Below, piece by piece: positions 10,737-33,055 of a stretch of DNA of 64,000 bases. Position 1 is the first letter of the stretch. Each line of letters starts with the position of its first letter. Under the pieces are notes generated by a model. The model had not been told where the DNA came from. It ran no database searches and worked only from the letters and a program-made list of their open reading frames with translations. Source of the stretch: Candidatus Latescibacterota bacterium (GTDB lineage Bacteria; Latescibacterota; UBA2968; GCA-2709665); NCBI GenBank assembly GCA_965116875.1, contig OZ220733.1, positions 1,760,001-1,824,000 on the forward strand, written 5' to 3'. The translations under genes were made by a program, and so were the position numbers.

Positions 10737-10871
10737 CATACGACCCTCCGCAAGTGGGTAGACGTAAGACGTGAGAGGGTAGAGATTGCCTGCCCGGTGG
10801 GGGTTTCAGTTCGAGCCATCGGCAAACAGGTGTAGCCTGTCGGGAAAGGATCTCATCTCCCGTCTTCCGTC

Positions 10872-13679: not shown

Positions 13680-14061
13680 GCGCGATTTGCAATAACCATC
13701 GGCGAAATCTGTCGGTCAGGTGTCGGTACAAGTTGCCATCGCGAGGAAGCGTCTGCGTAAGAAAGCCTGGTGCGGGCATTTCGACATTTCGACACCCTTC
13801 GACAGGCTCAGGGACCGAGCTCAATGCAGGCATGCTTGCTTCGACAAGCTCAGCACAGGCAATGACCACGCGTGGATATGCGATCTTAGACGTCGCTCAG
13901 AACGACATGCTGGCCTATAGTTAAGCACGACGCTTCCCGCTGTCATCCAGAGGAGGCGGAAGTTAAGGTGGGGCGGACATTCCTTTCTGCCCGCATGTCG
14001 ACGAATCGTCCGCGCACAAGTTTGTCTACAAAAGCCATATGCTACACGTTCGAGCGAGAAG
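13680..14061. repeat. Mosaic REP-like repeat block 1
   Basis: Modules shared with blocks 2-8 (CTTCGACAGGCTCA, GTGGGGCGGACATTCC, AGTTTGTCTACAAAAGCCATATGCTACACG). Confidence 0.85.
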
Positions 14062-14148
14062 TCACTATGTTAAAATGAGTTGAGCCTCAGCTTGTGAGAG
14101 TATACTTTGCCTTTGCCCGTAACAAACACTTTCACAAGGAGGCTCGTG

Positions 14149-15219
14149 ATGGCAAGGTATACCGTTGAAGCGTGGGATGGCAAGGATCTTTTCGTGGGCA
14201 TCGACATGCATCTCAAGCAGTGGCACGTGACGATTCTCAACGAGGATGGGTTGCGACTGTTCTCCAATCGCATCGCAGGCACAGCAGAGGCGATCGATAA
14301 GGTGTTGAGTCGTTATGGCGAAGCGAAAGAGATCTTTGCGGTGTATGAAGCCGGTTATTTCGGTTTCTGGTTATATGATTTTCTTGTCGATATGGGTGTG
14401 TCTGCTTCGGTGACGCCGCCGAGCCTGATCCCGAGCCAGAGTGGGAATCGGGTCAAGACGGATTCCATCGACAGCTTCAAGCTGGCGGATTATCTGAGGA
14501 CGGACCTGCTGGCATCGATCTATGTGCCGACGCATGAAGAGCGGTGCCACCGCCAAGTGAGTCGTCGCCGCCGGCAGTTCATCAAGGATCGGGTGCGTGT
14601 ACAACTACGGATCAAGGCCGAACTGCGGTATATGGGTTTGTATGTGCACGAAGAATCCAGAGGGACGTGGTCTGACAAGTTCGTGACCGCACTGCGTGGT
14701 GTGGACCTGGGGGAGCCGTGTGCGCAGGAAAGCTTCGAGAACATGCTGGAACAATACGATGATCTGTGTGAACTGGTGGGGCGCCAGACGAAAATGCTGT
14801 GGGAGCTTGCGCAAACAGACACGTATCGGGATCGGGTGGCGATCCTGACGTCGATCCCGGGCGTGGGATGCTTGTCTGCCATGGAGATCCTCCTGGAACT
14901 GCAGGATGTGGCGCGCTTCAAGAACGCAGATGCGCTGGCGGCCTACGTGGGGCTGACGCCCGGCCAGCACTCGTCGGGCGAGCACGTGAGGCACGGGCGC
15001 ATCACCCGCCAGGGAAAGCCCATTGTACGTGCGTTACTTACCCAGGCGGCCTGGCGCCTGATCGAGAAAGATCCCGCGATGCAGGAAAAATACGAACACT
15101 TGAAGGTGCGTGCCGGTGGCAAACGCGCCATCGTCGGTGTTGCCAGAATCCTGGTGGGCCGTATGCGCAGGATCCTGCTGAATGGAGAGCCCTATCAGCT
15201 GGGCCTCATCGCCGGGTGA
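14149..15219 (+). CDS. IS110-family recombinase/transposase (DEDD RuvC plus Tnp domain)
   Basis: VGIDMH, VYEAG and KTDSID (DEDD); SIPGVG and GLTPGQHSSG (conserved Ser); AAGGAGG RBS. Confidence 0.95.
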   Translation: MARYTVEAWDGKDLFVGIDMHLKQWHVTILNEDGLRLFSNRIAGTAEAIDKVLSRYGEAKEIFAVYEAGYFGFWLYDFLVDMGVSASVTPPSLIPSQSGNRVKTDSIDSFKLADYLRTDLLASIYVPTHEERCHRQVSRRRRQFIKDRVRVQLRIKAELRYMGLYVHEESRGTWSDKFVTALRGVDLGEPCAQESFENMLEQYDDLCELVGRQTKMLWELAQTDTYRDRVAILTSIPGVGCLSAMEILLELQDVARFKNADALAAYVGLTPGQHSSGEHVRHGRITRQGKPIVRALLTQAAWRLIEKDPAMQEKYEHLKVRAGGKRAIVGVARILVGRMRRILLNGEPYQLGLIAG

Positions 15220-15224
15220 ACACA

Positions 15225-15610
15225 CGGTCGCAACAGATGCCTGCGCACGCACCGCTTTTGATCGCGGAGTACAGGGGACGGCGCCTACCGTCTTGTAGAC
15301 CCACAGGGTACTACGTAAGTGAAGTTTGCACGCCCCGTCCCCTATCGCACGGCTCCGGATAAATGACATGTCAGCGCCTGCACCAGGCGACTACGAATAG
15401 TAGATTGGTAGCGTTGCCCCAGCATCTGAGGCCATCCAACAGAGAACACCGTACGCCTGGTCCCTACTGCTGTCGTGCGGCAGGGAACCATTCAGGCCTC
15501 AATGACGTTTATTTCGTTCATTCCGACACGCTCGACGAGCGTGTCGGAATGAACGCGTCGCATAGGTACGCATAATGGTAGAGTAACCCCAGCATCTGAG
15601 GCCAACATAT
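15225..15610 (+). ncRNA. Predicted bridge/seek RNA region of IS copy 1 (RNA ends undefined)
   Basis: Stem AGGGGACGG/CCGTCCCCT encloses an internal loop with CTACCGTCTT (9/10 match to target bottom strand) and GAAG; a second loop carries ATAGTAG matching the circle junction. Confidence 0.7.
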
Positions 15611-15641
15611 GGTCGTTTTCTCTTGACTTTTAACATAGTAG

Positions 15642-16393
15642 ACGGGAGATTCTTCGCTCCGCTCCGAATGACATGATGGCCGATAGCCGAGCACGATGCT
15701 TCGCGCTATCATCCAGAGGAGGCCGGGGTGCAACGTCTAGGAAACCCATCCGTGACACGTAAGACCAGATCGTCAAGCAGACGAGTCCCCCAGGCCGACG
15801 AAGGATCTACTGCAGCATGGGATGATGTCAAAGCGTCTGGCATTCGGTCCGCCAACAAATGCAGCACAATACCGCTTTTGCTTTGACTCCGCTCAGAATG
15901 ACAGACTTTGCAATAACCACTCGCGAAATGTATCGGTCAAGTGTCGGAACAAACGTTCATGCGGAGGAAGCCGAAAGGCAGTCGAAGCCTCCGCGCACGA
16001 GTTTGTCTACAAAAGCCATATGCTACACGTTCGAGCGAGAAGACGGGAGATTCTTCGCTCCGCTACGAATGACATGACTTGCAACAACCATTGGCGAAAT
16101 GAACCGGCCAGATCTTCGCTCCGCTCTGAATGACATGCCGGCCGATCGTCAAGCCCATTGCTTCCCCCTGCCATCCAGAGGAGGCCTGCACACAACGTCC
16201 AGGAATCACATCCGTTACTACGTGAGACCAGATTTTCGTGCAGAGGCGTCCCCAGGCCGACGAAGGATCTACTGCGGCATGGGATCATCCCCCGCGATTT
16301 GCACATGGCGACGCCTGAAAGGCAGCACGAAGACCAAGCGTCCGCGCACAAGTTTGTCTATAAAAGCCATATGCTACGCGTACGAGCGAGAAG
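15642..16393. repeat. Mosaic REP-like repeat block 2 (contains an empty IS target, core at 16041-16042)
   Basis: Several GATTCTTCGCTCCGCT..GAATGACA units and CAGGCCGACGAAGGATCT units. Confidence 0.88.
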
Positions 16394-16480
16394 TCACTAT
16401 GTTAAAATGAGTTGAGCCTCAGCTTGTGAGAGTATACTTTGCCGTTGTCCATAACAAACACTTTCACAAGGAGGCTCGTG

Positions 16481-17551
16481 ATGGCAAGGTATACCGTTGA
16501 AGCGTGGGATGGCAAGGTTCTTTTCGTGGGCATCGACATGCATCTCAAGCAGTGGCACGTGACCATTCTCAACGAGGATGGGTTGCGACTGTTCTCCAAT
16601 CGCATCGCAGGCACAGCAGAGGCGATCGATAAGGTGTTGAGTCGTTATGGCGAAGCGAAAGAGATCTTTGCGGTGTATGAAGCCGGTTATTTCGGTTTCT
16701 GGTTATACGATTTTCTTGTTGAAATGGGTGTGTCTGCTTCGGTGACGCCGCCGAGCCTGATCCCGAGCCAGAGTGGGAATCGGGTCAAGACGGATCCCAT
16801 CGACAGCTTCAAGCTGGCGGATTATCTGAGGACAGGCCTTCTGACATCGATCTATGTGCCGACGCATGAAGAGCGGTGCCACCGCCAGGTGAGTCGTCGC
16901 CGCCGGCAGTTCATCAAGGATCGGGTGCGTGTACAACTACGGATCAAGGCCGAACTGCGGTATATGGGTGTGTATGTGCCCGAAGAATCCAGAGGGACGT
17001 GGTCTGACAAGTTCGTGACCGCACTTGGCGGTGTGGACCTCGGGGAGCCGTGTGCGCAGGAAAGCTTTGAGAACATGCTGGAACAATACGATGATCTGTG
17101 TGAACTGGTGGGGCGCCAGACGAAAATGCTGTGGGAGCTTGCCCAAACAGACACGTATCGGGACCGGGTGGCGATCCTGACGTCGATCCCGGGCGTGGGA
17201 TGCCTGTCTGCCATGGAGATCCTCCTTGAGCTGCAGGATGTGGCACGCTTTGAGAGCGCAGATGCGCTGGCGGCCTACGCGGGGCTGACGCCAGGCCAGC
17301 ATTCGTCGGGTGAGCACGTGAGGCACGGGCGCATCACCCGCCAGGGGAAACCGATGGTGCGTGCGTTACTCATCCAGGCGGCCTGGCGCCTGATCGAGAA
17401 AGACCCCGCGATGCAGGAAAAATACGAACGCATGAAGGTGCCTGCCGGTGGCAAACGCGCCATCGTCGGTGTTGCCAGAAACCTGCTGGGCCGAATGCGC
17501 AGGATCTTGCTGAATGGAGAGCCCTATCAGCTGGGCCTCATCGCCGGGTGA
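16481..17551 (+). CDS. IS110-family recombinase/transposase
   Basis: Near-identical to copy 1; DEDD and GLTPGQHSSG motifs intact. Confidence 0.95.
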   Translation: MARYTVEAWDGKVLFVGIDMHLKQWHVTILNEDGLRLFSNRIAGTAEAIDKVLSRYGEAKEIFAVYEAGYFGFWLYDFLVEMGVSASVTPPSLIPSQSGNRVKTDPIDSFKLADYLRTGLLTSIYVPTHEERCHRQVSRRRRQFIKDRVRVQLRIKAELRYMGVYVPEESRGTWSDKFVTALGGVDLGEPCAQESFENMLEQYDDLCELVGRQTKMLWELAQTDTYRDRVAILTSIPGVGCLSAMEILLELQDVARFESADALAAYAGLTPGQHSSGEHVRHGRITRQGKPMVRALLIQAAWRLIEKDPAMQEKYERMKVPAGGKRAIVGVARNLLGRMRRILLNGEPYQLGLIAG

Positions 17552-17556
17552 ACACA

Positions 17557-17940
17557 CGGTCACATCAGATGGCTGCGCACGCACTGCTTTTAATCGCGGA
17601 GTACGGGGACGGCGCCTCCCGTCTTGTAGACCCTCAGGGTACTACGTAAGTTGAGTTTGCACGCCCCGGCCCCTATCGCACGGCTCCGGATAAATGACAT
17701 GTCAGCGCCTGCACCAGGCGACTACGAATAGTAGATTGGTAGCGTTGCCCCAGCATCTGAAGCCATCCAGAAGGGAATACCGTACGCCTGGTCCCTACTG
17801 CTGTCGTACGGTAGGGAACCATTCAGGACTCAATGACGTTTATTTCGTTCATTCCGACACGCTCGACGAGCGTGTCGGAATGAACGCGTGGCATAGGTAC
17901 GCACAATGGTAGAGTAACCCAAACATCTGAGGCCAAGATA
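17557..17940 (+). ncRNA. Predicted bridge/seek RNA region of IS copy 2
   Basis: CTCCCGTCTT (17616-17625) is the exact reverse complement of target AAGACGGGAG; ATAGTAG (17728-17734) matches the donor junction. Confidence 0.72.
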
Positions 17941-17972
17941 TTATCCTTTTCTCTTGACTTTTAACATAGTAG

Positions 17973-18405
17973 ACGGGAGATTCTTCGCTGCGCTCCGAGT
18001 GATTTGACTCGCAACAGCCATTGCCGACGTGAACCGGCCAGATCTTCGCTCCGCTCTGAATGACATGCTGGCTAATAGCCGAGTACGATGCTTCCCGCTG
18101 TCATCCAGAGGAGGCCTGGGTGCAACGTCCAAGAAACACATCCGTTACGCCTGAGATCAGTTTTTCACGTAGAGAAAGCCCCAGGCCGACGAAGGATCTA
18201 CTGCGGCATTGGATGATTGCAAAGCGCCTGGCATTCGGTCCACCAACAAATGCAGCACAAAACCGCTCTTGCTTCGACTTCGCTCAGAATAACACGCTGG
18301 TCCATAGTCAAGCGCATTGCTTCCCGCTGTCATCCAGAGGACTTGCCCTGAGCCTGTCGAAGGGGCCTGGGTGAAGGTGGGGCGGACATTCATGTCTGCC
18401 CGCTC
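17973..18405. repeat. Mosaic REP-like repeat block 3
   Basis: Same modules and orientation; ends in GTGGGGCGGACATTCATGTCTGCCCGCTC abutting the permease 3' end. Confidence 0.88.
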
Positions 18406-23519: not shown

Positions 23520-24447
23520 GTCAACCTGGCGCGGCTTCGCTATGGTCAGCTGTGACTGAATCCGAAAGGCCGACGAAGCCTCTGCGCAGGTAAGCCAAAT
23601 GCGGGCATTTCGACAAGCTCAATGACCACGCGTCGATATGCAATCTTCGGCGTCGCTCAGAATGACACGCTCGCCGATCGTCAAGCACGATGCTTCCCGC
23701 TGTCCTCCAGAGGAGCCCCCTGGGCCGACGAAGGATCTACTGCGGCATGGGATGATGCCAATGCGTCTGGCATTCTGCCCGCCAACAAATGCAGCACAAA
23801 AACCGCTCTTGTTTCGACTTCGCTCAGAATGACATGCTTTGCAAAAACCATTGGCGAAACCTGTCGGCCAGGTGTCGACACAAACTGTCGACCTGAGGAA
23901 GCCGGTGTGAGGGTGGGGCGGACATTCCTGTCTGCCTGCATGCGGCGGAAGCGTCCGCGCAAAAGTTCGTCTACAGAGGCCATATGCTCCACGTCCTGTC
24001 GAGACGGGAGATTCTTCGCTCCGCTCTGAATGACATGCTGGCCCATAGCCGAGCACGATACTTCCCGCTGTCATCCAGAGGACTTGCCCTGCTTGTGCTG
24101 AGCCTGTCGAAGCAAGCCTGTCGAAGGGGCCTGGGTGCAACGTCCAGGAATCACCTCTGTTTCACATGAGACCAGATTGTCATCCTAAGGAAGCCGGAAG
24201 GCAGTCGAAGCGTCCGCGCACAAGTTTGTCTATAAAATCCATATGCTACACGTTCGAGCGAGAAGACGGGAGATTCTTCGCTGCGCTTTGAATGACTTGA
24301 CTCGCAACAACCATTGGCGAAATGTATCGGTCAGATCTTCGCTCCGCTCTGAATGACATGCCGGCCGATAGTCAACCAAGATGCTTCCCGCTGTCGTCCT
24401 GAGGAAACCGGTGTGAGGGTGGGGCGGACATTCCTGTCTGCCCGCTC
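23520..24447. repeat. Mosaic REP-like repeat block 5 (longest; empty IS target core at 24264-24265)
   Basis: Contains nearly all modules seen in the other blocks. Confidence 0.88.
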
Positions 24448-26826
24448 TCACTCATACCGCAACGCGTCGACTGGATTGGTGCACGCAGCTCTCCAAGCCC
24501 GGTGACTCACGGTGGTCAACGCAATAAACAACGCCAGAAAACCACCCATGACAAAAGGCCAAACATCCAGATCTATGCGATATGCGAAATTCTGTAACCA
24601 CGCGTTCATTGCATAATATGCAATTGGCCACGCAATGAGATTCGCAAGTCCGATAAGCAGGACGAATTCTCTGGACAATAGCAGAACGACTGTGGAAACA
24701 GACGCTCCAAGGACCTTTCTGACGCCGATCTCCTTGATACGCTGTTGCGCGCTGAATGAAGCCAGACCAAACAGCCCAAGACTGGCAATAAGAATGGCGA
24801 GGAGAGAGAACAGTCCAAACAATTCGCCAATCTGTTGTTCTGCGCGATGCAGTTTGTCGTAATCGTCGTCCAAAAAGAAATAGTCGAACGGTGTATTCGG
24901 CGCAATTTCACCCCACTCTGCCTCCAGAATCCTGAGTGTACCTGCGATGTCATCAGAACGAATCCTGATAACGAAATACTCAAACCAAGTTTCCAGCGTT
25001 GTGATTATCAGAGGTTCGATTTCATGATGCAAAGACTGATAGTGAAAGTCCTTAACAACGCCGACAACCTTTCCTCTGTATTCTACCTCAATTTCGTTGC
25101 CCTGTGGCCATATTTTCTCCAATTCCTTACCAATGCACGAAGTCCAACCGAATTTTCGCCTGGCAGCTTGATTGAGGATAAGTTCGCCACGATTGTAACG
25201 CGAAATGTCTTTTGAGAATTCTCTGCCTTCTGTGAGTTCAAGTCCAAGTGTGGAGACGAATTCGTTGTCAGCCACGACCTTGTTAATCCCAAATCCATCC
25301 TCAGATGTGCCATCACCGGGAGACCGAAACAGACCGGTGGGAATTGGCCGACCAGGCAAACTTGAAGTCGTCGCAGTGCTCAATACATTTGTATACTCTG
25401 ACAATTTCGATTTGTATCGCTTTGTCGCTTGTATTCCGGGGTAAGGCAATACAACGACCTGTTCTTTATTGAAACCCAGTTTTTTGTTTCTGATGTAATC
25501 CGACTGATTGTAAACGACAATCGTCCCGACAATGAGAATTACCGAAATGGCAAATTGAAACACGACGAGGGATTTGCGTGAACCGGACTTCTGCAACCCT
25601 GTCTCCAGTGTGCCTTTTACGACCCTTGCTGGCTGAAATGCCGAGAGAATCAAGGCTGGATAAATCCCGGAAAGCGAACCTGCAAACAACGTTACCCCAA
25701 TCAAGACCAACAACACATGCAAAGTTCCCGCATAATCCAAATCCAATTTGCGGGATATAAGGGCGTTAAACGCAGGAAGTGAGACCTCAACAAGAACAAC
25801 CGCCAAAAATGAGGCAAACACCGCCAGCAGGATCGATTCACCCATAAACTGACGAAAAAGCTGTGAGCCGTTGGCGCCCACGACCTTTCGCATACTCACT
25901 TCTTTTGAGCGAGCCGTTGAGCGAGCCGTCGAGAGATTCGTAAAATTGACACAGGCCAATAGCAGCACAAAAAAGGCAATGATCAGGAAGAGATAGACAT
26001 AGCGAATATCGCTGTTGGAGCTCATTTCCCACTCCAGGCTGGAATTCAGATGAATATCAGCCAGTGGTTGCAGGAAGTAGCTGATTTGTAAACCTGCAGC
26101 TTTGGTCTGTCTCCCAATGTGCCTCTCGGTAAAATCAGGTAACTTCGTTTCTAACTCGTCAGCAGCACGGGTGTCTTGCAAGAGCAGATAGGTGTAATAA
26201 TCGTGGGCAATCCATTCCTTGCTCTTGATGGGCGATGCCAGAAAATCGAACGTTAAATGGGTATTGTGGGCGTGGTCCTCCAGAATACCAGTTATCTTGT
26301 ACGCTTCATCCTCCATTGCAAGCGTCTGCCCCATTGGATCCCGGTCGCCGAAATATTTCCACGCCATCTCTTGTGTGAGAACAATGGAATTGGGTTCCAG
26401 CAGTGCCGTTTGAGGATCCCCTTTGCCCAGTGGAAAATCAAAGACGTGGAAGACATTTGCATCGGTAAACAAGACATTACTTTCGTAGAAATGAACCTGC
26501 TGGTTTCCAACAAGCGTCTTTTCATTGGCTTTCAAAAAACGGACTGCATCTAACACTTCGGCATAGTCTTCGACAAGTGCAGGTCCCGTTGAAAATGGCG
26601 ACATGGCAACCTGACGCACGACCCCTGCGACCTTTGCGGTTGTAGCAAGCCGATAAATGCGGTTGGCGTTTTCATGGTGCCGGTCATAGCTCAGTTCATC
26701 CTGAACGTAGAGGAGAATGAGCATGCAGCAGGCCATGCCGATTGCAAGACCGAGGATATTGATGGCCGAAAATGTCTTGTTCCTCATTATGTTGCGAATG
26801 GCGACTTTCAGGTAATTCGCAATCAC
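24448..26826 (-). CDS. ABC transporter permease, MacB/FtsX-type (paralog 5)
   Basis: 792 aa; GTG start after AGGAGG RBS; TNPVDALRYE tail. Confidence 0.93.
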   Translation of the reverse strand: MIANYLKVAIRNIMRNKTFSAINILGLAIGMACCMLILLYVQDELSYDRHHENANRIYRLATTAKVAGVVRQVAMSPFSTGPALVEDYAEVLDAVRFLKANEKTLVGNQQVHFYESNVLFTDANVFHVFDFPLGKGDPQTALLEPNSIVLTQEMAWKYFGDRDPMGQTLAMEDEAYKITGILEDHAHNTHLTFDFLASPIKSKEWIAHDYYTYLLLQDTRAADELETKLPDFTERHIGRQTKAAGLQISYFLQPLADIHLNSSLEWEMSSNSDIRYVYLFLIIAFFVLLLACVNFTNLSTARSTARSKEVSMRKVVGANGSQLFRQFMGESILLAVFASFLAVVLVEVSLPAFNALISRKLDLDYAGTLHVLLVLIGVTLFAGSLSGIYPALILSAFQPARVVKGTLETGLQKSGSRKSLVVFQFAISVILIVGTIVVYNQSDYIRNKKLGFNKEQVVVLPYPGIQATKRYKSKLSEYTNVLSTATTSSLPGRPIPTGLFRSPGDGTSEDGFGINKVVADNEFVSTLGLELTEGREFSKDISRYNRGELILNQAARRKFGWTSCIGKELEKIWPQGNEIEVEYRGKVVGVVKDFHYQSLHHEIEPLIITTLETWFEYFVIRIRSDDIAGTLRILEAEWGEIAPNTPFDYFFLDDDYDKLHRAEQQIGELFGLFSLLAILIASLGLFGLASFSAQQRIKEIGVRKVLGASVSTVVLLLSREFVLLIGLANLIAWPIAYYAMNAWLQNFAYRIDLDVWPFVMGGFLALFIALTTVSHRAWRAACTNPVDALRYE

Positions 26827-26839
26827 GTTGTGCTACCTC

Positions 26840-27403
26840 CTGCGGCTTCGTTATGCCCGGCTGCGACCGTAGCCGTCAAGCCAACGACGCGTCCGCGCAC
26901 GAGTTTGTCTATAAAGGCCATATGCTACACGTACGAGCGAGAAGACGGGAGATTCTTCGCTCCGCTACGAATGACATGACTTGCAATAACCATTGGCGAA
27001 ATGAACCGGCCAGATCTTCGCTCCGCTCTGAATGACACGCCGGCCGATAGCCGAGCACGATGCTTCCCGCTGTCGTCCTGAGGAAACCGGTCTGAGGGTA
27101 GGGCGGACATTCCTGTCTGCCTGCATCGCAGTCCGTCTGCGCTCTGGCTGTCATCCCGAGGAAGCCGAAAGGCAGGCGTTGGGTCCGCGCAGGGAAGCTT
27201 AGTGCGGGCATTTCGACAAGCTCAATGACCACGCGTCGACATGCGATTTTGACTCCGCTCTGAATGACATGCTGGCCGATAGCCGAGCACGATACTTCCC
27301 TCTGTCCTCCAGAGGACTTGCCCTGCTTGTGCTGAGCTTGTCGAAGCAAGCCTGTCGAAGGGGCCTGGGTGAGGGTGGGGCGGACATTCCTGTCTGCCCA
27401 CTC
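26840..27403. repeat. Mosaic REP-like repeat block 6 (empty IS target core at 26943-26944)
   Basis: Same modules and orientation as the other blocks. Confidence 0.88.
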
Positions 27404-29794
27404 TCACTCATAACGCAGCGCGTCGACTGGATTCGCCCCCGCTGCTTTCCACGTCTTGTAGCCCACTGTAAGAAGCGCGATGCTCAGCGACAGCAATCCT
27501 CCAAGAAAAAATGTTGGGAACGCCGGATCGACCCGGTACGCGAAGTTCTCCAGCCACCTGTTCATTGCATAATAGGCAATCGGCCAGGCGACGAGATTGG
27601 CAATCCCGACAAGTACAACATATTCCCTGGACAAGAGCAAGACAACGTTGGTAACGGATGCCCCCACCGCTTTCCGGATACCAATTTCCTTGGTCCTTTG
27701 TTGCACGCTGATAGACGCCAGGCCGAACAGACCGAGACCCGCCACGACAATCGCCAGGATGGAAAACACGCCGAGAAGCGTCCCAAGTCGAGCTTCCGTA
27801 CGGTAAAGCTGATCGAAAGACGTGTCCAGGAACGAGTATTCAAACGGCGAATTCGGCGCTACTTCCCGCCACTGCGTTTTCAGGAAATCCAACGTGCCAG
27901 AAATGTCCTCCGGACGTATCCGGATCGACAGGTAGTTTACCCATCCCCTGTCTACCAGCATGATCACGAGCGGTTCGATTTCGTGATGCAGTGATTTGTA
28001 GTGAAAGTCCTTCACAACGCCCACGACGTCTCCCTGGACGTTCACTTTTAATTGACCGCCTTCCGGATAGACATGCGCCAGTTTTTTGTTTTCACAGGAC
28101 GTCCACCCCAATTTCCGCATGGCGGCGTCATTGAGCATGAATGTCCCGATTCGGTCGCTTCTGAATTCCTTCGAAAAGGCACGACCCTCCAATACTTCGA
28201 TTCCAAATGTCGAGATGAACCCGTGACCCGCGAATACCACGTTGAATACCGACGCATCGCTGCTGCGGCCCTCGATGACGGGGCGAAAGAAGTGACTTGC
28301 GATCATCCGACCAGGCACGGTCGACGAAGCAGAGGCGTCCAATACCGAACTGTATGGCGTCACCGCGTTCTTATATCGCTTCATGGCATCTGGATCACCG
28401 TAGGGCATTACGAGCACGTGCTCCTTTTGGAATCCCAATCGCATGTTGCGTACGAAACTCGCCTGGTCATAGACCACTGCCGTCCCAATCACAAGTACGA
28501 TTGAAATGGCAAACTGAACGACGACAAGCGTCCTTTGCAGACTCAGTTTGTTGGAACCGGCACGCGCCAAACCTTTCAATGCGGCAACCGGCTGAAAGGA
28601 GGAGAGAAACAGGGCGGGATAGCTACCGGACAGAACTCCTGTAAGCAGCACAATGCCAATGAAGCCCACCAGGAGTCCACTGCCTCGCAGATACTCAAGA
28701 TTCAGGCTACGTTCAGTAAAGGCACTAAACGTGGGTAGGGCAGTTTCGACGAACACGACGGCGACAACTGTGGAAATCGCAGCTGTAATGGTCGAATCGC
28801 CCAGAAACTGAAAAATCATCTGTCGTCGTTTTGCCCCGACCACTTTCCGCAGTCCCACCTCCCTAGACCGGTACGTGCAATGGGCGGTCGAAAGGATCGT
28901 ATAATTGATGCACCCCAGCAGCAACACAAAAAACGCGATTGCGACGAACAGGTAGATATATCTGATGTCCCCGTTTGCACTGACTTCATATTCCAGACTG
29001 GAATGCAAATGAATATCGGTCAACGTCTGCAGGAAGGGTTTCATCTGCACCCGCCTGGCTTTGTCTCTTTCGCGAAGATACCGCTCGACAAAATCGGGCA
29101 ATGCCCGCTCCAATTCGGACGCGGCATTTTTGTCTCTCAAGAGCAGATAGGTATAATAGCTGTGAGCAATCCAGCCGTCGTCGTCACTTTCTATGGGCGT
29201 TGCCAGAAAATCGAACTGTAAATGAGTGTTGTACGTGGGTTCTTCCAGGATGCCGGTTACCTTATACAATTTCCGGTCCACCGAGAGAGGCCGCCCGATC
29301 GGGTCGTCGCCGTCGAAGTACTTCCTGGCCATTGCTTCCGACAGCACGATGGAATACGGTTCCCGAAGCGCCGTCTGGGGATCTCCGTTGCTCAGTGGAA
29401 AATCGAAGACCCGAAGGATGTTCGAATCCGTGAACATTACGCCCGGCTCGTAAAAATGGTCGTCTCTGGTTTCAACCAGTGTTTTCTCGCCGATATCCCT
29501 GAAGAACCGCACGGCATCGACAACCATTGGATAGTCCTGCACGAGAGCCGGCCCCATCTGGAACGGCGTAACCGCAATACGATGCGTCTTCCCACTCACG
29601 CTGACCTCATCGGCAAGGCGAAATATCCGATCTGCGTTCTCGTGATGCCGGTCATAGCTCAGTTCATCCTGAACGTAGAGGAGAATGAGCATGCAACAGG
29701 CCATGCCGATTGCAAGACCGAGGATATTGATGGTGGAAAACAGCTTGTTTCTCAACAGGTTGCGAATGGCGACTTTCAGATAGTTCGCGATCAC
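27404..29794 (-). CDS. ABC transporter permease, MacB/FtsX-type (paralog 6)
   Basis: 796 aa; GTG start after AGGAGG RBS; ANPVDALRYE tail. Confidence 0.93.
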   Translation of the reverse strand: MIANYLKVAIRNLLRNKLFSTINILGLAIGMACCMLILLYVQDELSYDRHHENADRIFRLADEVSVSGKTHRIAVTPFQMGPALVQDYPMVVDAVRFFRDIGEKTLVETRDDHFYEPGVMFTDSNILRVFDFPLSNGDPQTALREPYSIVLSEAMARKYFDGDDPIGRPLSVDRKLYKVTGILEEPTYNTHLQFDFLATPIESDDDGWIAHSYYTYLLLRDKNAASELERALPDFVERYLRERDKARRVQMKPFLQTLTDIHLHSSLEYEVSANGDIRYIYLFVAIAFFVLLLGCINYTILSTAHCTYRSREVGLRKVVGAKRRQMIFQFLGDSTITAAISTVVAVVFVETALPTFSAFTERSLNLEYLRGSGLLVGFIGIVLLTGVLSGSYPALFLSSFQPVAALKGLARAGSNKLSLQRTLVVVQFAISIVLVIGTAVVYDQASFVRNMRLGFQKEHVLVMPYGDPDAMKRYKNAVTPYSSVLDASASSTVPGRMIASHFFRPVIEGRSSDASVFNVVFAGHGFISTFGIEVLEGRAFSKEFRSDRIGTFMLNDAAMRKLGWTSCENKKLAHVYPEGGQLKVNVQGDVVGVVKDFHYKSLHHEIEPLVIMLVDRGWVNYLSIRIRPEDISGTLDFLKTQWREVAPNSPFEYSFLDTSFDQLYRTEARLGTLLGVFSILAIVVAGLGLFGLASISVQQRTKEIGIRKAVGASVTNVVLLLSREYVVLVGIANLVAWPIAYYAMNRWLENFAYRVDPAFPTFFLGGLLSLSIALLTVGYKTWKAAGANPVDALRYE

Positions 29795-29819
29795 GTTGGT
29801 ACCTCCTGTGTCGTCACCG

Positions 29820-30290
29820 GTTCGGCTTCGCTATGCCCGGCTGCGACCGAAGCTGTCAACCCATCGAAGCGTGCGCGCAGGGAAGCTTAGTGCGGGCATT
29901 TCGACAAGCTCAATGACCACGCGTCGACATGCGATTTTGACTCCGCTCTGAATGACACGCCGGCCGATAGCCGAGCACGATGCTTCCCGCTGTCGTCCTG
30001 AGGACTTGCCCTGCTTGTGCTGCTTGCACTGAGCCTGTCGAAGTGGCTCGTCGAAGCAAGCCTGTCGAAGGGGCCTGGATGAGGGTGGGGCGGACATTCC
30101 TGTCTGCCTGCATGTCGACGAAGCGTCCGCGCACGAGTTTGTCTACAAGAGCCATATGCTACACGTACGAGCCAGAAGACGGGAGATTCTTCGCTCCGCT
30201 ACGAATGACACGACTTGCAATAACCATTGGCGAAATGTATCGGTCAGATCTTCGCTCCGCTCTGAATGACATGACGTTCGATCGCCATCG
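29820..30290. repeat. Mosaic REP-like repeat block 7 (empty IS target core at 30177-30178)
   Basis: Same modules in a different order. Confidence 0.88.
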
Positions 30291-30367
30291 TTGATATGTA
30301 TCTGTCTCTCGTCGGCTTAGACTAAAATGGTGTGGGAGCCAAAGGGCTGACGAGGGGTCGCCCGCTC

Positions 30368-32833
30368 TTACTCATACCGCAGCGCGTCCACGGGATTCGC
30401 GCGGGCTGCCCGGGTGACCTGAAGGCTCACCGCCAGGAGCACCATGAGAAGCATGAGCCCGCCTCCCAGCAGAAACGTCCCGAGCCCCGGTTCCACGCGA
30501 TACGCAAAGTCTCGCAGCCAGCGCTCGGCCACGAAGTAGGTCGCTGGCCATGCGATCAGAGCGGCGATGCCGACGAGGACCACGTATTCCCTGGTCAGCA
30601 GAGACACGATCCGCGACGTCGGCGCGCCAAGGGTCTTCCGGATCCCGATTTCCTTGGTCCGCCTGGCCACAGTGAGCGACGTCAATCCGAAGGCGCCCAG
30701 GCAGGCGATGAATACCGCGAAAAGAGTCGCGTAACCCGCGATTCTGAACCACCGCTGTTCCTCACGGTATTGACGATCTATTTCCTCATCCAGGAAGTTA
30801 TGGTCAAACGGAACATTCGGTACGACTTCATCCCACTTCTCTCTCAGGAAATCCAGCGTGTCAAAGACGTTCTCCGGACGAATCCGAACCATCAGCAGGA
30901 CCCGGAAGTCCGGCATGGACCTGGCGGATGACGAGGACGCCTGCAATTTCAGCACCGCGGGCCCAATGGTGTGGTGAAGGGACCGGAAATGAAAATCACG
31001 GACGACGCCGATTACCGTTAATTCCTGCCCATCGATTCGAATCGTCTCACCGAGCGGTGATTCCCATCCGAGTCTCTTGGCGAGGGTTTCGTTGACAAGG
31101 ACCGACGTCTTCGCATCGTTTTCCCGTTCGAGATTCCTCCCGTCAGTTAGCCTGATGTTCATTGTTTCGAGAAGTCGCGAATCGCAGAAAATCCTTTCAA
31201 CACCTGCCAAAGTCGTCCCCTTCCAGCTTATGTGAGTATTGTTCCTCATAGAATTGCTAAGACCGTGTGATGTTCTCGTGGATTTCAATACGGAATGGTG
31301 TGGCCGGATTGCTTCCTCGAAGACATTAGCCAATTCCAATCTATCTGATATCCCTAATAGTCGAATGACGACAACATGGCTGGATTCGAAACCAAGCGGC
31401 ATTGATTTCCACGCGCTCATTTGTATTGATGCTATGGTCATGGCTGTCACCAGTGCTGTGGAGATGGCCAGTTGAAATACAAGGAGCGCGCGGCTGAAGG
31501 TCCCCACGCGATCCACCTTGAACCGACCTCTCAACGCATCGACCGGGAAAAAGCCCGACATGAACAACGCAGGGTAACCCCCGGCGAATACTCCCACGAC
31601 CAGCGCCATGACGAACAGAAACACGAGTGACTCAGAATTTCCAAGATCGGACAACGCGAATTTCCTGCTGACCAGGCTGTTGAAACCCGGCATGAACAGT
31701 TCGGCCAGTGCCACCCCGAGCGCGAACGCGATCAACGTCAGCAGGACCGATTCCGCGAGAAACTGCCTCACCAGTTGCGTACGCAGGCCCCCGGCCACCT
31801 TACGCATTCCGACTTCCCGGACACGGGAAAACGACCGGCCGACAGACAGATTCGTATAATTGACTCCCGCCACGACCAGCACGAGTAATGCAATGCCTCC
31901 CAGAAGATGTGAATGGACAGGATTGCCATCGGGGCGCGGTCCCATGCGCCTGCCATCAAAATAAATCTCTCCAAGCGGCTGCAACATCAGCTTACTCAGG
32001 TATCGGCTCCTGGTTTCTGATACCTGAAGATCTTCAATGCGGCGTTCGACTTCCAGTGGGCTCAGATAATCAGGGAGCATAATGTAAGTGCTCACTGCAC
32101 TGACGTTCAAGCCGCGTTCTTGATTGTCCGGTTTTAATGAGGAAAGAAAGTCAAAGCGAATGGTGGAGTTCCTGGGAATGTCCCTGATCACACCGGTTAT
32201 CGTCATTTCCTGAGTCGGTCGAGCGTCTGCGAATTCGTCCTTGGATTCAGGGGGTTTGCTTTGTCGACCTATCGAAATCACGTTCAAGCCGGATGCTCCC
32301 ACGGTGAATACTGCCGCCTCGATGTCTTGAACCGAGATTGTCTTTCCAATCGGGTCCTCACCCGGGAAATACTTATCGGCCATTGTTTCAGTTATGACGA
32401 CATAGTCTGGATCCGACAATGCGGTGGCAGGGTCTCCCTTGATCAGAGGAAAGGAGAAGACGTCCAGAATCTCTGGGTCTGCAAAAAGGAAATCTGCCTT
32501 GGTCGTCTCACCAGCGCGCCCAATCACGCGTCCACCGGGATCCAATCTCACGCATTGGACATCCGGCTGAGCTTCTGACAACTTTGGTGCTAACGTGATC
32601 TCCGTCCTTTCAGACAAGTAAACCGCATCATTAACCTTTAGCTCCCTTACAATCCGGTAAATCCGATCCGCGTTTTCGTGAAACCCGTCGTACGTCCACT
32701 CGTATCGCACAAACAGGAACGCCAGCAGGCAAAATGAAATCGCGATGCCGAGGCCGACGACGTTGATCGCGGCATAGAGCGGATGCCGCAGCAGGTTTCG
32801 CCAGGCCACCTTGAGATAATTCCAGAACATCAA
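30368..32833 (-). CDS. ABC transporter permease, MacB/FtsX-type (paralog 7)
   Basis: 821 aa with a ~30-aa insert in the first periplasmic domain; ANPVDALRYE tail. Confidence 0.93.
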   Translation of the reverse strand: MMFWNYLKVAWRNLLRHPLYAAINVVGLGIAISFCLLAFLFVRYEWTYDGFHENADRIYRIVRELKVNDAVYLSERTEITLAPKLSEAQPDVQCVRLDPGGRVIGRAGETTKADFLFADPEILDVFSFPLIKGDPATALSDPDYVVITETMADKYFPGEDPIGKTISVQDIEAAVFTVGASGLNVISIGRQSKPPESKDEFADARPTQEMTITGVIRDIPRNSTIRFDFLSSLKPDNQERGLNVSAVSTYIMLPDYLSPLEVERRIEDLQVSETRSRYLSKLMLQPLGEIYFDGRRMGPRPDGNPVHSHLLGGIALLVLVVAGVNYTNLSVGRSFSRVREVGMRKVAGGLRTQLVRQFLAESVLLTLIAFALGVALAELFMPGFNSLVSRKFALSDLGNSESLVFLFVMALVVGVFAGGYPALFMSGFFPVDALRGRFKVDRVGTFSRALLVFQLAISTALVTAMTIASIQMSAWKSMPLGFESSHVVVIRLLGISDRLELANVFEEAIRPHHSVLKSTRTSHGLSNSMRNNTHISWKGTTLAGVERIFCDSRLLETMNIRLTDGRNLERENDAKTSVLVNETLAKRLGWESPLGETIRIDGQELTVIGVVRDFHFRSLHHTIGPAVLKLQASSSSARSMPDFRVLLMVRIRPENVFDTLDFLREKWDEVVPNVPFDHNFLDEEIDRQYREEQRWFRIAGYATLFAVFIACLGAFGLTSLTVARRTKEIGIRKTLGAPTSRIVSLLTREYVVLVGIAALIAWPATYFVAERWLRDFAYRVEPGLGTFLLGGGLMLLMVLLAVSLQVTRAARANPVDALRYE

Positions 32834-32864
32834 TAGACTCCTCTTGGATTGGATTCATCGATGA

Positions 32865-33055
32865 AATGTCCGCGCATATGGGTTTACCGCGCGTTGACCT
32901 CATGGACAGTCGAGAAGACGGGAGATTCTTCGCTCCACTACGAATGACATGGCTTGCAATAACCATTGGCGAAATGAACCGGCCAGATCTTCGCTCCGCT
33001 CTGAATGACATGCTGGCCGATTGCCGAACACGATGCTTCCCGCTGTCACCCTGGT
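32865..33055. repeat. Mosaic REP-like repeat block 8 (empty IS target core at 32916-32917), inside the predicted 5' leader
   Basis: CGAGAAGACGGGAGATTCTTCGCTCC...AGATCTTCGCTCCGCTCTGAATGACA. Confidence 0.85.

Follow-up and report, generated by a model that had tools for sequence, protein, structure and literature searches.

This report concerns an insertion sequence (IS) in a window of 64,000 nucleotides (the whole stretch of DNA that was analysed, from contig OZ220733.1 of assembly GCA_965116875.1) of a Candidatus Latescibacterota bacterium. The element is very probably of the IS1111 type, with a DEDD recombinase guided by a bispecific RNA (bridge/seek RNA) that is encoded 3' of the recombinase gene. 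All four guide segments of this RNA covary with target or donor in related loci, and the matches of guides to targets and element ends exceed chance; it is this covariation, not one single match, that serves as evidence. Bridge/seek RNAs of IS110/IS1111 elements were described in 2024 and are predicted in most catalogued members. The initial annotation of the window had claimed that enzyme, guide, donor and target are all readable in it, which is upheld by Pfam, by the NCBIfam family NF033542 and by comparison of guides with ends and sites. The host genome is a single contig of 5.45 Mb with six full-length copies of the element (c1 to c6). Coordinates refer to the window, and the principal parts of copy c1 are the following.

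14062..15641, + strand: IS copy c1 (1580 bp, one AG core copy at 15640-15641 counted in)
14149..15219, + strand: recombinase gene (356 aa; DEDD RuvC-like domain, Tnp domain, motif GLTPGQHSSG)
15274..15417, + strand: bridge/seek RNA gene, minimal extent, with target loop and donor loop (covariance model, pair counts)

The probable guide RNA and its covariation

Relatives of the recombinase for which DNA was at hand comprise 7 loci from species genomes (46-53% protein identity) and 80 metagenome loci (49-64%). Among 52 other genomes of the host's order no close relative was found (0/52 at an expectation value, E, of ≤1e-60), so that the covariation data were drawn from metagenome contigs at 49-64% identity. 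In the relatives the motif ACCACGAATAG-N-AG sits 130-230 nt past the stop codon (351 nt in L084). The segments of the RNA in c1 are listed below in their order along the sequence.

15274..15283, + strand: target loop outer stem, 5' strand (pairs with 15331-15342; fold and relatives)
15285..15293, + strand: left target guide, CTACCGT + core CT (c2 and c6 read CTCCCGT-CT)
15295..15314, + strand: inner hairpin of the target loop, GTAGACCC / GGGTACTAC (fold; helix 2 is 81.7% paired in relatives)
15316..15324, + strand: right target guide zone, TAAGTGA + core AG (position fixed in relatives, after ACG and before TTTG)
15331..15342, + strand: target loop outer stem, 3' strand (fold, RNAalifold, pair counts)
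15347..15358, + strand: donor loop outer stem, 5' strand, GCACGGCT, then CCGG (pairs with 15405-15417)
15364..15367, + strand: left donor guide, TGA + first core base C (left-end classes in relatives)
15375..15389, + strand: inner hairpin of the donor loop (fold; base helix 5 is 88.1% paired in relatives)
15397..15404, + strand: right donor guide, ATAGT + core AG, then a handshake-like A (variable base in 68/68 rows, next base in 51/67)
15405..15417, + strand: donor loop outer stem, 3' strand (pair counts in relatives)

The strings from which the initial annotation had built two guide loops of parallel design were checked against the sequence and all lie where it had placed them. They are, in loop 1, the outer stem AGGGGACGG (15273-15281) with CCGTCCCCT (15335-15343), the left strand CTACCGTCTT (15285-15294), the inner hairpin (15295-15314) and the right strand GTAAGTGAAG (15315-15324); in loop 2, AAATGAC (15361-15367), CGCCTG/CAGGCG (15375-15380 and 15384-15389) and ATAGTAG (15397-15403); and CTCCCGTCTT of copy c2 (17616-17625). 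The parallel design itself is borne out by folding and by stems that covary in relatives. The minimum-free-energy fold of 15255-15420 yields the outer stem of loop 1 together with both inner hairpins, and a covariance model (R1), the other structural check that had been proposed, matches 15269-15426 (72.6 bits, E 1.1e-19). The proposed RNA end at 15410 is too short; the 3' strand of the loop 2 outer stem lies past this position, and the RNA therefore reaches at least 15417.

Pairing was quantified in an alignment (A3) of 65 sequences, three from this genome and 62 of the 68 distinct relatives. Six relatives of different spacing (L032, L044, L061, L071, L079 and L088) were left out of it by eye and kept in the guide-match counts. 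The named structure of 27 pairs, which comprises the two outer stems and the base of each inner hairpin, is 84.4% paired in this alignment against at most 43.3% when partners are slid, and 18 of the 27 pairs are changed on both sides; the observed values were reached in 0/500 shuffles. The outer stem of the target loop is 92.8% paired in relatives with seven of its eight pairs changed on both sides, and RNAalifold on A3 returns the same stem with compensatory changes in 6/7 pairs. The outer stem of the donor loop is 70.1% (helix 3) and 92.7% (helix 4) paired in relatives; in the element itself 6/8 + 4 of its pairs form, by inspection. The model R1 has six matches in the genome, all within c1 to c6, and no orphan copy of the RNA was found with it (150 of 612 genome candidates scored). 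A further closing helix (15234-15247 / 15415-15428) was considered. It looks compensatory by eye in L025 and L026, and a duplex test gave a mean of -12.68 kcal/mol for own pairs and -11.53 for cross pairs; the helix is not claimed.

Several results weigh against this structural reading. The fold energy is ordinary (z = -1.07 in c1, z = -0.25 in c2), no Rfam family matches at E ≤1 in 13900-18400 except for a chance long non-coding RNA match, and RNAalifold recovered just this one outer stem from A3, a MAFFT alignment in which variable-length hairpins align poorly. Thermodynamics alone would be insufficient for the RNA claim.

The guides follow the sequences that they would read. Covariation of guide and target with homologous ends had been suggested as a check by the initial annotation, and the left target guide, scanned for as the reverse complement of the first seven flank bases + CT, agrees with the flank of the same locus at 8 or 9 out of 9 positions in 39/65 rows against 49/4144 in cross-locus comparisons. 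Most of these matches directly precede the (T)GT(G/A) with which the inner hairpin starts. A rule of fixed position gives 30/63 rows versus 25/3890 cross-locus. The right target guide, taken as the last six left-flank bases + AG, fits at 7 or 8 of 8 in 38/68 rows versus 320/4386, and its matches are located between ACG and TTTG. The base after this guide, where a handshake-like match might be sought, has no consistent match by eye (uncounted).

In the donor loop the variable base of the right donor guide equals that of the right end (ACATAG-N-AG) in 68/68 rows, 64 from relatives and four from own copies, with G in 22, C in 31 and T in 15. The base after the core of this guide equals the first right-flank base in 51/67 rows (24.7 expected; 0/10000 shuffles reach 51), as it does in c1, where the handshake-like A that ends the guide is also the first base of the right flank. 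The left donor guide falls into five classes: the RNA words TTAC, TGAC, TAAC, TCA(T/A) and TTGC pair with left ends TAAC, TCAC, TTAC, TGAC and CAAC, respectively, with some G-T wobbles; in the left end, the second position shows all four Watson-Crick pairs. The match of TGAC to the left donor had been called short and weak; short it is, and the five covarying classes make it real. The left and right guides thus measure 7+2 nt and 2+2 nt (≤6+2 in relatives), respectively, in the target loop, and 3+1 nt and 5+2+1 nt in the donor loop. The core is read as CT in the left target guide and as AG in the right target and right donor guides.

Variation among the six copies points in the same direction. 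The following sites are concerned, in addition to the guides of c1.

15642..15648, + strand: right half of the target occupied by c1, ACGGGAG (one mismatch to the c1 guide)
16394..17972, + strand: IS copy c2 (76 differences from c1)
17616..17624, + strand: left target guide of c2, CTCCCGT-CT (RNA model match of c2 at 17600-17757)
16039..16051, + strand: empty target site GAAGACGGGAGAT in the same REP-like (repetitive extragenic palindromic) repeat (core AG at 16041-16042)

The guide reads CTACCGT-CT in c1, c3, c4 and c5 and CTCCCGT-CT in c2 and c6, and the right flank reads ACGGTAG at c3, c4 and c5 and ACGGGAG at c1, c2 and c6. Guide and site thereby agree at 9/9 positions in five of the six copies, through change on both sides. 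Guide alleles A and C coexist in the genome, each at the matching site variant (T or G), c1 excepted. The claim that the RNA is programmed against the genome's own REP-like repeat consequently stands exactly for c2 and c6; the c1 guide is cognate to ACGGTAG and has one mismatch to the repeat in which c1 lies. Only GA-AG (15321-15324) of the right target guide zone fits both kinds of site, and AG.GAAG within it fits ACGGTAG-type sites at 6/7 letters.

That these matches are incidental, the protein and the subterminal repeats alone choosing the site and the right end being a conserved spacer or regulatory region, is hardly credible. Such an account draws on the brevity of two of the four guide matches (GA-AG and TGA-C) and on the ordinary fold energy; it has to face a one-base guide polymorphism that follows a one-base site polymorphism in 5/6 copies, cross-locus controls of 1.2% versus 60%, a left donor guide position at which all four Watson-Crick pairs occur, and the 68/68 agreement of the right donor guide. 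For the RNA-guided reading itself the guide data hold difficulties too. The fixed-position rule mis-anchored about one third of rows (L025 and L013 are 9/9 by the scan), the A guide of c1 lies in a G site with one mismatch to its own flank, the right target guide of the element fits by just GA-AG and is altered in c2 (TTGAG), and the left donor guide has only 3+1 nt with the second core base unpaired. As the relatives share ancestry, their counts are not independent and the numbers of events are overstated.

Boundaries, recombinase and proposed mechanism

Comparison of filled sites with the empty REP-like site at 16039-16051 set the boundaries of c1. A filled site is longer than the empty one by exactly 1580 bp, with a single AG in common (CT on the bottom strand) and no duplication; the other AG (14060-14061) is part of the c1 target and not of the element. 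The bottom-strand target read by the initial annotation, CTCCCGT-CT-TCTC, and the predicted circle junction, CATAGTGA-CT-ACTAT, agree with this comparison. Contigs of the public runs X2 and X3 join 14059 to 15640 with 1580 bases skipped; these joints probably stem from other, empty members of the same repeat family, and they thus confirm the boundary and not excision. The ends carry subterminal inverted repeats of 12 bp, and two candidate promoter boxes lie close to them.

14064..14075, + strand: left subterminal inverted repeat ACTATGTTAAAA (reverse complement of 15628-15639; TC stands between repeat and core)
15628..15639, + strand: right subterminal inverted repeat TTTTAACATAGT (sequence)
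15623..15628, + strand: candidate -35 box TTGACT of a circle-junction promoter (same distance from the end in 40/64 relatives)
14066..14071, + strand: candidate -10 box TATGTT, forming a promoter in the circle junction only (spacing of 17 to TTGACT across the junction)

Non-coding sequence extends over 87 nt at the left end, upstream of the gene, and over 422 nt at the right end, downstream of it. IS1111 elements are described with subterminal inverted repeats of 7-17 bp (PMC11208160), a longer non-coding region downstream of the transposase gene and a GL-P----SG motif in the transposase, which GLTPGQHSSG fits (PMC11187229). By these repeats, this layout and this motif the element would be classed as an IS1111-type member of the IS110 family. 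Both Pfam domains of the recombinase (PF02371, E 5.2e-27; PF01548, E 3.5e-19) are found in c1 and c2, and NF033542, 'IS110 family RNA-guided transposase', is matched with 216 bits (cut-off 140). D19, E67 and D108 are invariant and D105 nearly so among 35 relatives compared, and the reading frame is open in 6/6 copies. The recombinase also matches 8wt6, a structure of the IS621 transposase, distantly (E 1.5e-11). Closer proteins are known among metagenome relatives (97, 91, 91, 88, 88 and 81% identity), and the best plasmid-borne relatives have at most 35.5% identity. An open reading frame (ORF) in the right end (15363-15575) was not treated as coding since a one-base insertion of c6 falls within it.

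In the mechanism proposed, loop 1 would read the insertion site, its 5' strand (7 nt + CT) pairing with top-strand DNA on the right side of the insertion point and its 3' strand (GA + AG; ≤6+2 in relatives) with bottom-strand DNA on the left side. Loop 2 would read the two ends as they are joined in the excised circle, its 5' strand (TGA + C) pairing with the left end and its 3' strand (ATAGT + AG + the handshake-like base) with the right end. The circle would then be inserted by recombination at the common AG/CT dinucleotide, without duplication. Joining of the ends would also create a promoter, TTGACT-17-TATGTT, from which the recombinase gene and then the RNA could be transcribed. TATGTT or TATGAT is present at the -10 place in 68/70 relatives with a left end, and a junction promoter that transcribes the non-coding region as well is described for the family (PMC11187229). 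By analogy with such elements, we infer transcription and processing of the region, binding of the RNA to the recombinase and formation of the circle. No circle junction was seen in contigs of runs X1 to X4. A weak terminator-like site (15600-15624, + strand), made of a 5-bp stem and then GTTTTCTCTT, directly precedes the -35 box and could end the transcript bearing gene and RNA.

Two points stand against this scheme: a search of the integrated copy found no sigma-70-like promoter, and X1, the one RNA-library run with part of the element and available as contigs only, extends over 14058-14585 and does not reach the right end. From so short a stretch nothing follows for the RNA. Both observations would also suit guide segments that act as DNA, in a single-stranded or hairpin right end and with no RNA, as do the subterminal guides of IS200/IS605, and covariation cannot separate an RNA guide from a DNA guide of equal sequence. 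Such a DNA guide is nevertheless very improbable. The RNA of tested IS1111/IS110 elements is described as co-purifying with the transposase and working in trans (PMC11187229, PMC11208160), the recombinase matches a family model for RNA-guided transposases, and the stems covary like those of a folded single strand in the sense orientation.

Relation to described elements

The RNA-guided element proposed here resembles ISEc11, ISPa11, ISKpn4 and ISPst6, as these are described in PMC11187229 (Siddiquee et al. 2024), in its DEDD transposase with GL-P----SG, its subterminal inverted repeats, its long downstream non-coding region, its insertion without duplication and the promoter halves at its ends. 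The same source locates the RNA of IS1111-type elements downstream of the gene, in non-coding sequence, and has the segment that matches the top strand on the 5' side of the one that matches the bottom strand; the orientation of gene and RNA is given there as opposite in the IS1111 and IS110 types, with which the element agrees. Its recombinase has 356 aa, compared with 330-350 aa for the seekRNA IS1111 family (PMC11187229), and its right end of 422 nt is enlarged by a 170-bp segment relative to seekRNA IS1111 elements.

With IS621 (PMC11208160, Durrant et al. 2024; PMC11208158 and PMC13626964, Hiraizumi et al.) the element shares two internal loops, a CT core, handshake-like bases and sites in host repeats. 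In each loop of both systems the left guide is 5' and sense to the CT strand and the right guide is 3' and antisense (PMC11208160); the left target guide of 7+2 nt and the short right target guide are likewise common to both. Unlike in IS621, the RNA is encoded 3' of the gene, at the right end and not at the left, and the element is inverted with respect to the CT strand. The asymmetry of the donor guides is reversed, 3+1 left and 5+2 right as against 7 bp and 2 bp in the IS621 description (PMC11208160). That description also has the core in each of four guides. Here the dinucleotide is not in all four, the left donor guide reading TGA-C and then A, as in most relatives, so that it matches the first core base only; the protein match is weak as noted above (E 1.5e-11). 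Handshake guides are described for IS621 in PMC13626964, and the base after the core of the right donor guide resembles these.

ISPpu9 and ISPpu10 of Pseudomonas putida, according to PMC12288879, are also IS110-family elements present in several copies in REP sequences of their host, with a small-RNA gene downstream of the transposase gene and extra modules at the ends. The ISPpu9 RNA, Ssr9, is reported by that source as not required for transposition and as occurring alone as well. Unlike Ssr9, the RNA described here carries guides, and no orphan copy of it was found in the part of the genome search given above (150/612 candidates scored).

The extra segment that accounts for the length of the right end is delimited as follows.

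15435..15604, + strand: extra 170-bp segment (between 29-nt direct repeats at 15406-15434 and 15576-15604)

The distance from the right donor guide to the end of the element is 42-70 nt in 59/64 relatives and 238 nt here. The segment holds a perfect palindrome of 20+20 nt (15515-15555) that is the dominant feature in the fold of 15400-15641 (z = -5.41). In copy c5 one base is changed on each arm of the palindrome (C>T and G>A; 15524 and 15546), with pairing kept. In the relative L025 another palindromic insert takes the corresponding place. A second bridge RNA was sought in the segment and was not retained, since no model match was significant (best + strand E 0.74); pairwise alignment of the segment is weak outside the common ends. 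The base at the centre of the palindrome flips between A and T among the copies, and the ends of its arms resemble a REP-like word of the host (TCATTC.GA ... TC.GAATGA).

Host repeats, copy histories and mobility

The targets are 11-mers. GAAGACGGGAG has 53 occurrences in the genome against 3.8 expected and GAAGACGGTAG has 15 against 2.6, and as many empty sites (53 and 15) are present; six of the empty sites lie in the window, where 0.07 are expected. The words are found in at least three repeat contexts.

Context 1: REP-like unit of about 95 bp, occupied by c1, c2 and c6
Context 2: heptad arrays (G/T/A)AGA(C/G)GG, then a hairpin, occupied by c3 to c5
Context 3: unit with CCACCACCTGGTGAGAAG upstream of the target word

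The target is accordingly a word common to several repeat families of the host. The initial annotation was right in seeing a repeat of the host itself as the target, and its single REP gives way to this 11-mer. Copies c1 and c2 both lie inside a gap of 4.7 kb full of repeats, bordered by a gene for a BNR-repeat protein on one side and by one for a MacB/FtsX-type permease on the other. Empty target sites in the window are seen at 16039, 24262, 26941, 30175 and 32914, among others. Heptad arrays occur genome-wide (e.g., 10857-10867, - strand), often followed by AAGAAA.CCTTGCC and a GC-rich hairpin, and the heptad words AGACGGGAG and AGACGGTAG count 245 occurrences against 63 expected and 159 against 43, respectively. 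REP-like units (about 95 bp, GTCCGCGCAC...GAAGACGGGAGATTCTTCGCTCCGCT.CGAATGACATG) together with a second word, GCTTCCCGCTGTCATCCAGAGGAGG, fill the intergenic gaps of 13700-18400 and 24000-33000.

The copies differ from c1 by 2 (c3), 4 (c4), 8 (c5), 76 (c2) and 176 bases (c6), and c1, c3, c4 and c5 differ mutually by 2-10 bases. The mismatched c1, with its A guide in a G site, lies 2.3 kb from c2, which carries a C guide. Three readings of the mismatch remain: an insertion in spite of a single mismatch, located five bases from the core; guidance of c1 in trans by the RNA of c2 or c6; and mutation in place or exchange with another copy. The differences among c1, c3, c4 and c5, few as they are, clash with any single tree. 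At position 14464 c4 and c5 keep the state of c2/c6 and c1 is derived; at 14556 c5 keeps it and c1 is again derived. A role of c1 as mother copy in which the guide mutated was considered in view of these two positions and is not claimed. Sites 14464 and 15443 show all four combinations among the copies, and exchange of sequence between copies appears likely. Copy c5 (C1:3415448-3417027) has five c2-like bases at the window equivalent of 14502-14556 in an otherwise c1-like sequence, a patch that suggests exchange between copies of the two lineages. Right ends of the c1 type and of the c2 type (differences at 15273, 15303, 15321 and 15322) are both present in the public runs X2 and X3 (15200-15368), which are labelled as other organisms; either the lineages coexist beyond this assembly or the runs include its source.

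For ISEc11, circle formation is described as requiring a donor flanked by the correct target (PMC11187229), which would make the RNA of c1 a poorer excision partner for c1 than the RNA of its neighbour. The design may hence be real with c1 and c2 as relics that no longer move, a reading that deserves some weight while being doubtful overall. The mismatch of c1 to its flank speaks for it under the ISEc11 requirement, as do the damaged right target guide of c2 (TTGAG) and the single mismatch in the c2 outer stem. Open recombinase frames in all six copies speak against it, and the 2, 4 and 8 bases that separate c1 from c3, c4 and c5 suggest recent movement of this lineage; moreover, the RNA of c2/c6 matches the c1 flank and could act in trans. 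Since the ends are identical in all copies, the RNA of one lineage could excise or insert the DNA of the other. It is conceivable, if unlikely, that the six copies form a population that shares guides, split into two lineages by the A/C change, and that c1 was placed or kept mobile by the RNA of its neighbour and is not an off-target insertion.

The element brings no new principle and belongs to a known class of RNA-guided mobile elements; its value is that of a clean natural case. With two guide alleles that differ by a single base and one mismatched copy, the genome offers a ready test of how well mismatches are tolerated and of whether guides act in trans. The approximately 65 relatives yield a covariance model and a map of the guides for this IS1111 subgroup (target loop 7+2 and ≤6+2, donor loop 3+1 and 5+2+1), and this map could aid the annotation of such elements and the choice of orthologues for recombination tools.

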